Source: Escherichia coli
Lineage (GTDB): Bacteria > Pseudomonadota > Gammaproteobacteria > Enterobacterales > Enterobacteriaceae
NCBI RefSeq assembly: GCF_048403405.1
Contig: NZ_CP183131.1
Strand: one strand, 5' to 3'
DNA: 64,000 bases
Under the pieces are notes generated by a model. It was not told where the DNA came from and searched no databases. It saw only the letters and a list, made by a program, of their open reading frames with translations. Made by a program: the position numbers and the translations under genes. Position 1 is the stretch's first letter. Each line of letters opens with the position of its first letter. Shown one piece after another: positions 6,884 to 9,938 of this stretch.

Positions 6884-7852
6884 TTAGCGCCATTGGTCCC
6901 CGAACACATCCTTCGCAACACGCAGGATGGCTTCACGCTCCTCTTTGGCCGCACGGATAAGCAGAGCTTGATCCAGGGCGTATTCAAGAGCATTTGGGGC
7001 ACCACGGAACGCTAGAGACAGTTTCGCCCAACGCACCAACGTCCGAGTGGACATGGTGACGCTGATCTGACCATCTTCACCGTTTTCGCCAAGAAACAGT
7101 TTGCGGACCTGATTAGCAATCCGAACCATTCCCTTCCGCACATTTTCCGGAAGTTTCGGAGTAACACGGCCAAGAATGCTGAGTTCAGCTTCCTCATCCG
7201 CATACCCTACTTTGGTGAAACGATAGCGATCCATAGCTGCGAGGTTCTGCATCATCACCCCCTGGTACAAACCAGAAGCATCACCGGACCCCGTAGAGTT
7301 ACCAGTAACGACCACACGAAACATCGGGTGCGGCTTGATGATTTCCCCGCCATTCTGAGCGATCACAAGGGGACGCCCTTCAAGGACATCGTTGAGACCA
7401 GCCAGCTCGGCAGGGTCGGCCAAATCCACCTCGTTGATGAGGAGCAGATGACCTTCACGCATAGCGACTGCCAGAGGTCCATACATGAACTTCATGACAG
7501 GTGGTTGACCAGGCTTTTCCGCGACCAGAGCGTGATGTCCAATCAGATCTGTCAGCTCCATCCGCCCGTGGGCAGTGATTTGCTGAACAGGCCAGTTGAG
7601 ACGACCAGCGATCTCGGTGATACCTGAGGTTTTGCCAGACCCGGTAGGGCCGGTTACGAACAATGCGTCACCGCCAGGCTCTTTGAGATAGGCCAAGACC
7701 TCTCGCAGAAACTCTTTGCGGAAAACGTAGTTGGTATCAGTGGCAGGGATGAAAGGGTTTGAACCGTCAGCGTAGCCGATGGCCGTTACCTTCTCCGGAA
7801 TGCTGGGCATACCGAAAACCTTGCTTACTGAGAATTGAGAGTATTGAGACAT
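6884..7852 (-). CDS. CobS-like / MoxR-type AAA+ ATPase
   Basis: Walker A GPTGSGKTS; Walker B-like LLLINEVD; AGGAG 7 nt before ATG. Confidence 0.8.
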   Translation of the reverse strand: MSQYSQFSVSKVFGMPSIPEKVTAIGYADGSNPFIPATDTNYVFRKEFLREVLAYLKEPGGDALFVTGPTGSGKTSGITEIAGRLNWPVQQITAHGRMELTDLIGHHALVAEKPGQPPVMKFMYGPLAVAMREGHLLLINEVDLADPAELAGLNDVLEGRPLVIAQNGGEIIKPHPMFRVVVTGNSTGSGDASGLYQGVMMQNLAAMDRYRFTKVGYADEEAELSILGRVTPKLPENVRKGMVRIANQVRKLFLGENGEDGQISVTMSTRTLVRWAKLSLAFRGAPNALEYALDQALLIRAAKEEREAILRVAKDVFGDQWR

Positions 7853-7874
7853 AGGTGCGCTCCTATTGTGACAG

Positions 7875-7994
7875 GCGCACCACGTCCCGAACCGGGCGGA
7901 TGCGCCCGGTTGGGCTAGTAAATTAACGTTAATTTGCTGTTTGTTTTTGGCGACCAGCTATCGCACTTTTCGCTCTCCGAAGAGAACAAAATCT
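7875..7994. repeat. 120-bp direct repeat copy B, immediately upstream of the cobS-like gene start
   Basis: Identical by eye to 3040..3159. Confidence 0.85.
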
Positions 7995-8071
7995 GCTTAC
8001 TGATGGTATTCACCATGAGTAAGAAGACTTTTAAGGAGCGAGGAGAGTAGCCTCTCCTGGAGGCCACTCCC

Positions 8072-8323
8072 TCAATGGACGAACATCACCACATCGTCGT
8101 TTTGACCAATGACCCCGGTTTCTTTGGCCCACTTCACTGCTTCACTGTGCGCCTGGTAGGAGCTGGAATACAGTTTCGGATCAAATTTCACCTCGCGTCC
8201 ATCAGCCAGATAGATGATGCCTGCGTGATCGTCGTAAACATGAAGATTCTGTTGCATTCGACATTCCCCCTGTAGCTTGTCGTCAAAGCCAACTGACACC
8301 AGAAGACTTTGAGGACAAGCCAC
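8072..8323 (-). CDS. hypothetical small protein (83 aa)
   Basis: ORF only; position between repeat copy B and upstream small genes. Confidence 0.4.
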   Translation of the reverse strand: MACPQSLLVSVGFDDKLQGECRMQQNLHVYDDHAGIIYLADGREVKFDPKLYSSSYQAHSEAVKWAKETGVIGQNDDVVMFVH

Positions 8324-8370
8324 AGAGGCTTGACCAGAAAGAGAGGGGTTGCCCCCTCCCTTTGCGTTGA

Positions 8371-8466
8371 CTATCAGCAGTAACCGAACGATTCAGCGAT
8401 TCTCACGAAAGGACGAGAGATTGCCCAACCAGTAGGGATACACAAAGCGATGATAGCGATTTCCAT
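8371..8466 (-). CDS. possible small hydrophobic peptide (31 aa, MEIAIIALCIPTGW...)
   Basis: ATG preceded by AGGAGCAACATC, nearly identical to the initiation region of the 8561..8881 gene, and placed right after a terminator hairpin; below ORF-track size cutoff. Confidence 0.3.
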
Positions 8467-8487
8467 GATGTTGCTCCTAAGCAAAAA

Positions 8488-8520
8488 GGGGCAACATCCC
8501 CGTCGGGGTATGGTTGCCCC
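8488..8520 (-). terminator. rho-independent terminator-like hairpin (GGGGCAAC...GTTGCCCC + U-run on minus strand)
   Basis: Inverted repeat followed by T-run on the coding (minus) strand, just downstream of the 8561 stop. Confidence 0.5.
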
Positions 8521-8560
8521 GATGGGTTTGAAAGTGTCGAAGATTACTCAGCGACAGTTA

Positions 8561-8881
8561 TTACCAAACAAGTTCCTTGCCCTTACGAAGGTAAGTCGGG
8601 ATTTCGAGATAATCCCAGTCAGGTTCTTGTTTAGCGACTTCTTGAACTTGAGTTACCTCAGGTTCAACGACTGCTTTGGCTTGTTCAGCCTTGGCAGCAC
8701 GTTCTTTGATGACGGCCTGTACAGACCGCATTGCAGGAACTGCGAATTTGTTCCAAAGGAACAAACCGATACGCTGGAACACTTTAGCGAGAACGATGAA
8801 GGAAAAAGCAAATGCCTTCGCGCCTACGTACAGTGCGCCCAGAGATGCAAGCAGAACTACAATGAAAGTGATGATGTGCAT
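8561..8881 (-). CDS. small membrane protein whose C-terminus (EPDWDYLEIPTYLRKGKELVW) mimics the conserved FtsZ C-terminal peptide
   Basis: N-terminal hydrophobic segment IITFIVVLLASLGALYVGAKAFAFSFIVLA; AGGAG 7 nt before ATG; tail matches E. coli FtsZ ...EPDYLDIPAFLRKQAD. Confidence 0.65.
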   Translation of the reverse strand: MHIITFIVVLLASLGALYVGAKAFAFSFIVLAKVFQRIGLFLWNKFAVPAMRSVQAVIKERAAKAEQAKAVVEPEVTQVQEVAKQEPDWDYLEIPTYLRKGKELVW

Positions 8882-9078
8882 GGTGTTGCTCCTATGTAAA
8901 AAAACAGGGGCAACACCCGAAAACCGGGAGAAGCCCCCGGCTTGGGGTTAAGTAATGCCATACGGCATAAGACTAGATGCTGTTTGTTTTCGGAGACCAG
9001 CTATCTCACCTATAGCCGCAGAGCGACTAAGATGATTCAAATATAGCTCACCTTTGCTAAACAGAAAACGCTGTAACT

Positions 9079-9093
9079 GTCCATTTTGGGCAC
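9079..9093. promoter_or_regulatory. GCCCAWTTTGGRCA-type box (candidate AcaCD/SetCD-like activator site)
   Basis: GTCCATTTTGGGCAC preceded by CTGT; one of five similar boxes. Confidence 0.45.
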
Positions 9094-9174
9094 TTCGAGA
9101 GGTCAGGTTACAGATTGACCGCATTTATCCTTTCCAGTGCGTTTATCTGTACCTCAAATTTAGGAGTATCTCTA

Positions 9175-9816
9175 ATGGCAGAAGCACAAGTAGCACTGGA
9201 CACAAACAACGACCGCAGCAACCACTACTCTCGCCCTGTTTTCAAGCAAGTTCTGAAAGTAAACAGCCTCCAAGCTCAGCGCGTCATGGAACGCAGCTTT
9301 GAGCGAGTTTCCAACTCCCTGTTCTCCATCGACGTGATCCTTCGCATCATCGGTGAGCAGGACGAAATCGACCAGGTTGAAACCGTCATCCTGGAACACA
9401 TTTCCAAGGTCTCCGAAGACCTGGACAAAGCTACCGCCCAGCTCAACAAGCTGATGGAAGACAACGGCATCGACATGATGCCCGGCTACACCAACCCGAA
9501 TGAATACACCATCGAGATCAACTCTCCTCAGGTTGCTCAGTTTGCACACCTGATCCGCAAACTGGATACCCTGATGGGGATCGTTGACACTCTCTGGCTG
9601 AACACCGTACTGACCAGCAAGCAGCGCACCGACGCCACTTACCAATGGCAGCAACGCCTCATCAAGCTGGCCGGTCGAATCATCGGCATCGAGAAACGGG
9701 CTCGCATTTCCGCCCACAGCAAAGGCAAAGAAGGTGAAGTGGCCGAAGCCGCTCCGGAATCTGCAACCGGCGACAAGGAAATCGCAGACGAAGCCGAGAA
9801 AACAAAAGCAGCATAA
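9175..9816 (+). CDS. hypothetical protein (213 aa)
   Basis: AGGAG 8 nt before ATG at 9175 (ORF-track frame 9115..9816); followed by a terminator. Confidence 0.6.
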   Translation: MAEAQVALDTNNDRSNHYSRPVFKQVLKVNSLQAQRVMERSFERVSNSLFSIDVILRIIGEQDEIDQVETVILEHISKVSEDLDKATAQLNKLMEDNGIDMMPGYTNPNEYTIEINSPQVAQFAHLIRKLDTLMGIVDTLWLNTVLTSKQRTDATYQWQQRLIKLAGRIIGIEKRARISAHSKGKEGEVAEAAPESATGDKEIADEAEKTKAA

Positions 9817-9832
9817 CCCAGCCCAAACCTTT

Positions 9833-9858
9833 GCCCCTCGCCCGAGGGGCTTTTTTTT
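9833..9858 (+). terminator. rho-independent terminator (GCCCCTCG/CGAGGGGC + T8)
   Basis: GC hairpin followed by TTTTTTTT. Confidence 0.75.
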
Positions 9859-9938
9859 GTCTTTTATGGTTGCATTTTTTGATGCTGTGATATTATCGAA
9901 GTAAATCAGATTCAACTCAGGTAAGAACGGAGAACAAC

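Follow-up and report, generated by a model that had tools for sequence, protein, structure and literature searches.

We analysed a stretch of 64,000 nucleotides (nt) of Escherichia coli DNA (RefSeq assembly GCF_048403405.1, contig NZ_CP183131.1), here called the window, with a focus on the gene vcrx087 and on the C-terminal tail of its product. An earlier interpretation made from the letters alone (the sequence-only reading) had proposed at this place a plasmid gene of 106 amino acids (aa) for a membrane protein that ends in a likeness of the C-terminal peptide (CTP) of FtsZ. Translation reproduced this open reading frame (ORF) exactly, at 8561..8881 on the minus strand, with the product MHIITFIVVLLASLGALYVGAKAFAFSFIVLAKVFQRIGLFLWNKFAVPAMRSVQAVIKERAAKAEQAKAVVEPEVTQVQEVAKQEPDWDYLEIPTYLRKGKELVW, and its coordinates and length identify it as vcrx087 of pVCR94 (65235..65555), which belongs to the core backbone of IncC/IncA and related (ACL) conjugative plasmids. 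Hundreds of IncC (A/C2) conjugative plasmids match this region at 100% identity, and tblastn located vcrx087 in 825 plasmid records (823 conjugative, 725 at 99% identity or more) from host genera that include Klebsiella, Escherichia, Salmonella, Vibrio, Aeromonas, Proteus and Shewanella. The gene is carried by essentially all IncC/IncA multidrug-resistance plasmids. It was labelled "gene of unknown function" by Durand et al. 2021 (PMC8373056), and in the searchable literature we found no earlier functional claim and nothing that ties it to FtsZ or to cell division. Comparison of Vcrx087 with the Pfam, NCBIfam, PHROG and PADLOC libraries gave no match below E=0.01. The parts of the gene are the following:

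8561..8881, minus strand: vcrx087 coding sequence, 106 aa and stop codon
8819..8881, minus strand: N-terminal transmembrane anchor, residues 1-21 (MHIITFIVVLLASLGALYVGA), from hydropathy; kept across the family
8750..8815, minus strand: second, moderately hydrophobic segment, residues 23-44, with K33 and R37 (hydropathy 1.1-1.7 and family alignment)
8708..8728, minus strand: RSVQAVI, residues 52-58, family motif R-S-x-x-A-V-I/M (family sequences and alignment)
8621..8707, minus strand: charged low-complexity linker, residues 59-87, the least conserved of the three regions in the family alignment
8564..8620, minus strand: C-terminal tail, residues 88-106 (DWDYLEIPTYLRKGKELVW), conserved, with FtsZ CTPs as top matches in the PDB
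8582-8614, minus strand: FtsZ-CTP-like core DYLEIPTYLRK, residues 90-100, matching E. coli FtsZ 370-380

The N-terminal anchor and charged linker, without an FtsZ GTPase domain, that the sequence-only reading had described were borne out by hydropathy and by the lack of a Pfam domain. Residues 1-21 are strongly hydrophobic, with a Kyte-Doolittle mean of 2.27 over residues 1-19, while residues 23-44 could cross the membrane as a second helix or lie at its interface as an amphipathic helix. The R-S-x-x-A-V-I/M motif lies directly after the membrane region and is present even in the remotest members of the family. It is followed by the linker, which is rich in A/E/K/Q/V and differs in length and sequence between relatives, and then by the core, after which six more residues (GKELVW) complete the protein. 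Since the positive charges are clustered after the hydrophobic region, the positive-inside rule predicts that the tail is cytoplasmic (N-out/C-in or hairpin), with one or two membrane helices.

Likeness of the tail to the FtsZ C-terminal peptide

To compare the tail with FtsZ, we used the E. coli protein translated from MG1655 as the reference. The core DYLEIPTYLRK is identical at 8 of its 11 positions to DYLDIPAFLRK, residues 370-380 of E. coli FtsZ, and the three differences are all conservative (D/E, A/T, F/Y). The tail also agrees with the FtsZ-CTP consensus [DE]-[IV]-P-x-[FY]-[LM]-[RK]-[RKNQ], placed after an acidic/aromatic stretch, by its EIPTYLRK after DWDYL. With the CTPs of E. coli (DYLDIPAFLRKQAD) and Pseudomonas aeruginosa (DDLDYLDIPAFLRRQAD) it shares the core D-Y-L-[DE]-I-P-[AT]-[FY]-L-R-[KR] and the C-terminal position after a flexible linker. 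The Smith-Waterman alignment of Vcrx087 and E. coli FtsZ ends at both C-termini and scores 52, a value reached by 5 of 3000 shuffles (Gumbel p ~5e-4).

A less biased test than this pairwise comparison was made by searching 177,635 distinct PDB sequences with a profile of 26 positions built from 19 family tails. Only seven matches were obtained at E<=10, and the top three are FtsZ. The best is P. aeruginosa FtsZ (2vaw, E=0.0015, PQDDLDYLDIPAFLRR), followed by the 383-aa and 385-aa FtsZ chains 9isk and 8h1o (E=0.027 each), whose tails are DYLDIPAFLRK, of the E. coli/Klebsiella type; the FtsZ of Bacillus subtilis ranks fifth (E=0.78). Each FtsZ match was aligned at its extreme C-terminal peptide, and the closest one is gammaproteobacterial, which corresponds to the plasmids' own host range. 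A second profile, built from ten distant members after removal of the IncC clade, returned three PDB matches, all of them gammaproteobacterial FtsZ CTPs with E of about 1-2.5 each. Because this distant-member profile also returns FtsZ CTPs, the likeness is a property of the whole family, strongest in the IncC clade. Judged by these searches, the resemblance of the Vcrx087 tail to FtsZ is beyond chance, in agreement with the claim made for the C-terminus.

Other searches delimit where such tails occur. A single-sequence phmmer search of the PDB with the 34-aa tail gave no matches; this query was too short, and the family profile succeeded. A 44-column tail profile, run against a set of 5.8 billion proteins, recovered only fragments of the family itself, so that the tail was found on no other scaffold. 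A scan of the IMG/VR viral contigs for D[YF]L[DE]IPx[FY]LR yielded one match, which lies outside any ORF of at least 40 aa and is a chance match; phage-borne copies of the exact motif are not supported.

The sequence-only reading had named a remnant of a truncated ftsZ pseudogene as what would speak against it. This candidate was rejected, since this peptide (FtsZ residues 367-380) was the only match when E. coli FtsZ was searched by tblastn across the whole window, and neither Pfam nor the same tblastn detected an FtsZ GTPase domain (Pfam Tubulin/FtsZ_C) or a remnant of one at vcrx087.

A word-index search recovered 16 homologues of Vcrx087, down to 52% identity, and a hidden Markov model scan of 1.84 billion representatives gave 15 in total, the distant ones having 98-137 aa. 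All complete members share one plan, with a hydrophobic N-terminal anchor, the R-S-x-x-A-V-I motif, a variable linker and a C-terminal tail with the consensus D-W-x-x-[YF]-[DE]-x-P-[TAS]-[YF]-[LI]-R-[KRQ]-G-x-x-[LI]-V-W-COOH. The D-W upstream of the core and the G-x-x-L-V-W-COOH downstream of it are peculiar to the family. P95, R99 and G101 do not vary among 24 members, to about 30-45% identity, in which Y/F97 and L/I98 are also conserved while the linker drifts. In six genes compared at the DNA level, about half of the identical tail residues differ in codon. The tail is thus conserved as a peptide, and this pattern indicates that selection acts on the peptide.

The protein of the window is 100% identical to the plasmid copies and fits the family in every respect, having a length within about 100-140 aa, the anchor, the RSxxAVI motif, the tail and acaB/vcrx088-089-090-bet-exo as neighbours. 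The gene order traN, sfx, divergent acaB, vcrx087, small ORFs, AAA_5/CbbQ_C ATPase, 090, RecT and YqaJ is kept even in distant relatives. Four database relatives (P0016, P0010, P0024 and P0029) are frameshifted or truncated and have lost the tail; P0016 departs after residue 60 and later returns to the frame in EPDWDYLEI. Errors of assembly or sequencing, or occasional pseudogenes, probably account for these tail-less relatives. The Thermotoga maritima FtsZ tail that was co-crystallised with FtsA reportedly ends in ...DIPAIYRYGLEGLL, which would have in common with the Vcrx087 family an R-x-G and a hydrophobic end.

Transcription and translation of vcrx087

The sequences that control vcrx087, together with the neighbouring ORFs on either side, are the following:

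9175..9816, plus strand: acaB (vcrx086), divergent from vcrx087
9069..9098, minus strand: AcaCD activator box (CGAAGTGCCCAAAATGGACAGTTACAGCG), shared with divergent acaB (chromatin immunoprecipitation with exonuclease treatment, ChIP-exo, and MAST, p=2.4e-13; sequence)
9033..9035, minus strand: approximate transcription start of P_vcrx087, mapped from the pVCR94 start at 65081-65083 obtained by 5' rapid amplification of cDNA ends (5'-RACE; Table S3, PMC4207636)
8921..8943, minus strand: GC-rich leader hairpin followed by UUUU, attenuator/terminator-like, inside the ~153-nt 5' untranslated region
8882..8917, minus strand: hairpin that sequesters the Shine-Dalgarno (SD) sequence, pairing AGGAG (8889-8893) with an anti-SD and ending at the AUG
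8374..8466, minus strand: unannotated 30-aa ORF (MEIAIIALCIPTGWAISRPFVRIAESFGYC) between vcrx087 and vcrx088, preceded by a near-copy of the vcrx087 hairpin

The activator box proposed by the sequence-only reading proved to be the published AcaCD ChIP-exo site (~9069-9098 here; pVCR94 65019-65047, p=2.4e-13), which serves both vcrx087 and acaB/vcrx086 (PMC4207636). In the same study the 5'-RACE start of vcrx087 lies about 153 nt upstream of the ATG, and the RNA-seq values of the gene, in reads per kilobase per million (RPKM), rise from 5 in the absence of AcaCD to 3445 on induction, with 1454 for the wild-type plasmid (PMC4207636). Since the acaB-vcrx087 intergenic region (~8882-9174) is 1 bp longer here, with 294 nt between the start codons vs 293 in pVCR94, the published coordinates of the transcription start and of the AcaCD box carry an uncertainty of +/-1 nt. 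According to Durand et al., vcrx087 is both constitutive and activated by AcaCD/SgaCD (PMC8373056).

Reverse transcription PCR (RT-PCR) by Roy et al. 2020 placed vcrx087, vcrx089 and bet on one mRNA, probably made from P_vcrx087 (PMC7498323). These authors define hde as the five genes vcrx089-093 and mention vcrx087 only as part of the transcript; of the hde genes on that mRNA, vcrx089-090 act against type I restriction in the recipient and ssb-bet-exo serve in CRISPR evasion (PMC7498323). The gene is the first cistron of the hde transcript and does not stand alone with a terminator of its own; it shares with the hde operon of IncC plasmids and SXT/R391 elements both the P_vcrx087 transcript and the conserved synteny. 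The flanking terminator proposed earlier corresponds to intercistronic hairpins: hairpins do lie downstream, but a scan for canonical terminators found none directly flanking vcrx087, and the RT-PCR data show read-through into vcrx089/bet.

The leader of 153 nt has an unusual amount of structure (z=-5.0 for the fold of the whole leader vs shuffles). The AGGAG ribosome-binding site (RBS) announced by the sequence-only reading is present at a distance of 7 nt from the ATG, where a conserved hairpin keeps it base-paired. The layout with two hairpins was also found upstream of the homologues in five other elements (L003, L004, L006, L009 and L011), and the RBS hairpin carries compensatory changes between elements, which are double-sided in 3 of 15 pairs. 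A scan of the leader regions against Rfam gave no match. The start codons of vcrx087, of the 30-aa ORF and of vcrx089 each end an SD/anti-SD hairpin (8882-8917, 8467-8498 and ~7846-7888, respectively, on the minus strand), and the structure at vcrx089 had already been predicted to sequester the RBS by Roy et al. 2020 (PMC7498323). High transcription together with restrained translation is consistent with a dose-sensitive product and with tight control of a harmful protein.

The 30-aa ORF occupies the same position in three distant relatives (tblastn E=6e-10 in L004, 1e-6 in L003 and 2e-4 in L006). It probably encodes a real small membrane peptide, and this peptide may be a partner of Vcrx087 or be co-translated with it.

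Possible roles of Vcrx087

The mimicry at the sequence level, its conservation and the architecture of Vcrx087 are shown here, and its transcription and operon context by the literature; the topology, the binding partner and the effect on division are inferred. The reading that we favour, tentatively, is that Vcrx087 acts as a membrane-tethered decoy of the FtsZ tail, which would engage FtsA and/or ZipA and transiently perturb the anchoring of the Z ring while hde is expressed. The observation on the tail made by the sequence-only reading holds, and the titration or relocalisation of divisome partners that it drew from it is plausible. In the mechanism that we propose, a small inner-membrane protein would present a cytoplasmic, linker-borne C-terminal peptide that imitates the gammaproteobacterial FtsZ CTP and fills the CTP-binding site of FtsA and/or ZipA, possibly also that of other CTP readers. 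Because the decoy would itself be tethered to the membrane, it would reach a high local concentration near FtsA and ZipA, which could offset the 20-80 uM affinity of the free peptide, and the extra flanking contacts of the tail would also help it to compete. Anchoring of the Z ring would be weakened or delayed, in a dose-dependent manner, for as long as the operon is on, namely in new transconjugants and in AcaCD-ON donors. The delay would let the co-transcribed Hde functions repair, recombine and replicate the incoming plasmid ahead of cell division. The SD-sequestering hairpin would restrain translation, as expected of a potentially toxic product. The layout of the protein, in which a disordered linker and a terminal peptide copy those of FtsZ, speaks for this mechanism, as do the PDB profile matches, the conservation of the tail, and the high, AcaCD-induced expression of the gene at the head of the hde transcript, whose functions act in recipients.

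The comparison with FtsZ and with its partners sets out what such a decoy would be. Unlike FtsZ, Vcrx087 has an N-terminal membrane anchor in place of the tubulin-like GTPase domain. ZipA is an N-out, single-pass membrane protein, and Vcrx087 resembles it in having an N-terminal anchor, a charged/flexible linker and a cytoplasmic C-terminal interaction module. However, the module of ZipA is the receptor domain for the CTP and that of Vcrx087 is a copy of the ligand, and no sequence homology between them was detected (Pfam ZipA_C, PF04354, unmatched).

Published work indicates which residues of the tail would matter. The FtsZ residues I374, F377, L378, R379 and K380 are important for ZipA, FtsA, MinC, SlmA or ClpX; among them, I374 is critical for binding ZipA, FtsA, MinC and SlmA, and R379 and K380 matter for recognition by ClpXP. 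The equivalents in the IncC Vcrx087 are I/Y/L/R/K. The free CTP peptide binds with low affinity (20 uM for ZipA, 50 uM for FtsA and 81 uM for SlmA). The substitutions D373E, I374V, A376P, L378V and K380M make FtsZ resistant to MinC/MinD, yet these proteins replace wild-type FtsZ. Since the IncC tail has E at the position of D373, and FtsZ-D373E divides but resists MinC, this suggests that the Vcrx087 tail would be biased to FtsA/ZipA over MinC.

Several observations weigh against the decoy. Gammaproteobacterial FtsZ lacks several features that the family keeps, namely the upstream D-W, Gly101 and an extension of six residues with LVW at its end in place of QAD, and the family consistently prefers T/Y to the A/F of FtsZ. 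Most members have I/V at the equivalent of I374, while some distant ones have E, Q or T there. Binding to ZipA was modelled with AlphaFold2 (AF2) as a fusion of E. coli ZipA 187-328, a 25-residue GS linker and the tail, with an alignment of 40 ZipA homologues. The ZipA part folded with a predicted local distance difference test score (pLDDT) of about 90, while the Vcrx087 tail had a pLDDT of 28-34 and almost no helix; in the same construct, the true FtsZ tail reached a pLDDT of 65 over its last ten residues and formed a helix over IPAFLRKQA. ZipA binding by the Vcrx087 tail is thus unsupported by this model. The evidence is weak, because the PDB entries used to train AF2 include the complex of ZipA with the FtsZ peptide and because even the positive control scored only moderately. 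In E. coli, transposon-directed insertion-site sequencing showed that vcrx087 tolerates Tn5 insertions and is not an exclusion factor (PMC11493245), so any role of the protein is conditional. Finally, constitutive transcription of the gene argues against a strong block of division.

It is possible, though doubtful, that competition for FtsA/ZipA amounts to a division checkpoint under plasmid control, which in fresh recipients or in mating donors would couple DNA repair and establishment to an arrest. Such a checkpoint would be functionally similar to the SOS checkpoint of SulA, but it would be reached through mimicry of a ligand, for which we know of no precedent in a mobile element. Inhibitors of division from mobile elements or stress responses include lambda Kil, Qin DicB, T7 Gp0.4 and CbtA, the SOS protein SulA and MciZ of B. 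subtilis. They are small proteins that disturb Z-ring function within a transient window, acting either on the globular domain of FtsZ or by way of MinC or ZipA; to our knowledge, none of them acts by mimicry of the FtsZ tail. Vcrx087 is likewise a small protein of a mobile element and may interfere with the Z ring within such a window. It showed no similarity to division-inhibitor families (Kil/DicB/Gp0.4-like) in PHROGs, Pfam, NCBIfam or PADLOC (none below E=0.01). While small division inhibitors of mobile elements are already known, a natural mimic of the FtsZ CTP, carried by a conjugative plasmid, would be new, and no earlier report of such a mimic or decoy was found in the searchable literature.

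Other explanations of the tail must be weighed against the decoy. The tail may dock to a partner outside the divisome, such as the 30-aa peptide, Vcrx088, the AAA+ CbbQ/MoxR-like Vcrx089 with Vcrx090, or a component of the type IV secretion system or the membrane, with the likeness to FtsZ as ancestral baggage or coincidence. We consider this somewhat unlikely. The strict synteny of acaB, vcrx087, the small ORFs, AAA_5-CbbQ_C, 090, RecT and YqaJ in distant relatives agrees with it, as do the invariant Gly and terminal LVW, the variable I374 position and the AF2 model, in which the tail did not dock confidently to ZipA and the true FtsZ tail scored higher. Against it stand the two independent profile searches, which across the whole PDB matched FtsZ CTPs almost exclusively, and the 44-column profile, which found the tail on no other protein scaffold. 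In an alternative that retains binding to FtsA/ZipA, and which we regard as unlikely, the tail would be a localisation tag that takes Vcrx087 and the ligands of its membrane domain to the division site or new poles without measurable slowing of division. The PDB profile searches support this tag as much as the decoy; constitutive expression and insertion tolerance fit a benign role, and an affinity of 20-80 uM suffices for recruitment to a multivalent ring and is poor for titration. On the other hand, conserved sequestration of the RBS suggests that dosage matters, and no cargo is known.

The probability is low that the tail serves mainly as a stability or degradation signal, by ClpXP recognition or as a hydrophobic C-terminal degron, to set a short half-life. 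ClpX indeed recognises the C-terminus of FtsZ in a manner dependent on R379 and K380, and in the family R99 is invariant, K100 is mostly conserved and the C-terminus (LVW) is hydrophobic. Nevertheless, RKGKELVW does not match the ClpX C-motif-2 (R/H-x-K/R-K-hydrophobic at the end), and the conserved stretch D-W..Y-[DE]-x-P-[TA]-[YF] would be superfluous for a degron. Least probable of all is that the resemblance arose by chance or is a functionless, decayed piece of a captured ftsZ, which conservation and expression effectively refute. The motif is short and, in the pairwise comparison with one FtsZ, reaches modest significance (p ~5e-4), but the ORF is intact in the 825 plasmids, the tail is kept in relatives despite synonymous turnover, the window holds no other FtsZ-like sequence, the gene is transcribed from a mapped and regulated promoter, and the profile searches are specific for FtsZ CTPs.

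The decoy would be of interest beyond the plasmid itself. IncC/IncA plasmids are major carriers of multidrug resistance, those of the IncC type distribute genes for carbapenemases and other resistances among Enterobacterales, Vibrio, Aeromonas and further hosts, and vcrx087, universally conserved and highly transcribed, heads an operon by which the plasmid survives restriction and CRISPR on entry. If the tail does engage the receptors of the FtsZ tail, conjugative plasmids would manipulate host cytokinesis by mimicking the hub peptide of FtsZ, and plasmid establishment would gain a cell-cycle component. Vcrx087 would then be a natural, evolution-optimised competitor of the CTP, useful as a probe or as a lead for division inhibitors.

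Neighbouring gene and repeats

Downstream of the 30-aa ORF, vcrx088 (61 aa, window 8072-8257, minus strand) is kept in distant relatives (tblastn E=1e-16 and 4e-15) and has no known domain; its RPKM of 11025 is the highest induced value among vcrx084-089 in the published RNA-seq table. A megablast search with 7800-9900 as the query gave five matching places per plasmid record. In addition, the leaders of vcrx089 and vcrx087 contain a direct repeat of 39 nt (7935-7973 and 8978-9016, 85% identical), which may belong to the rpt repeats described by Roy et al. 2020.

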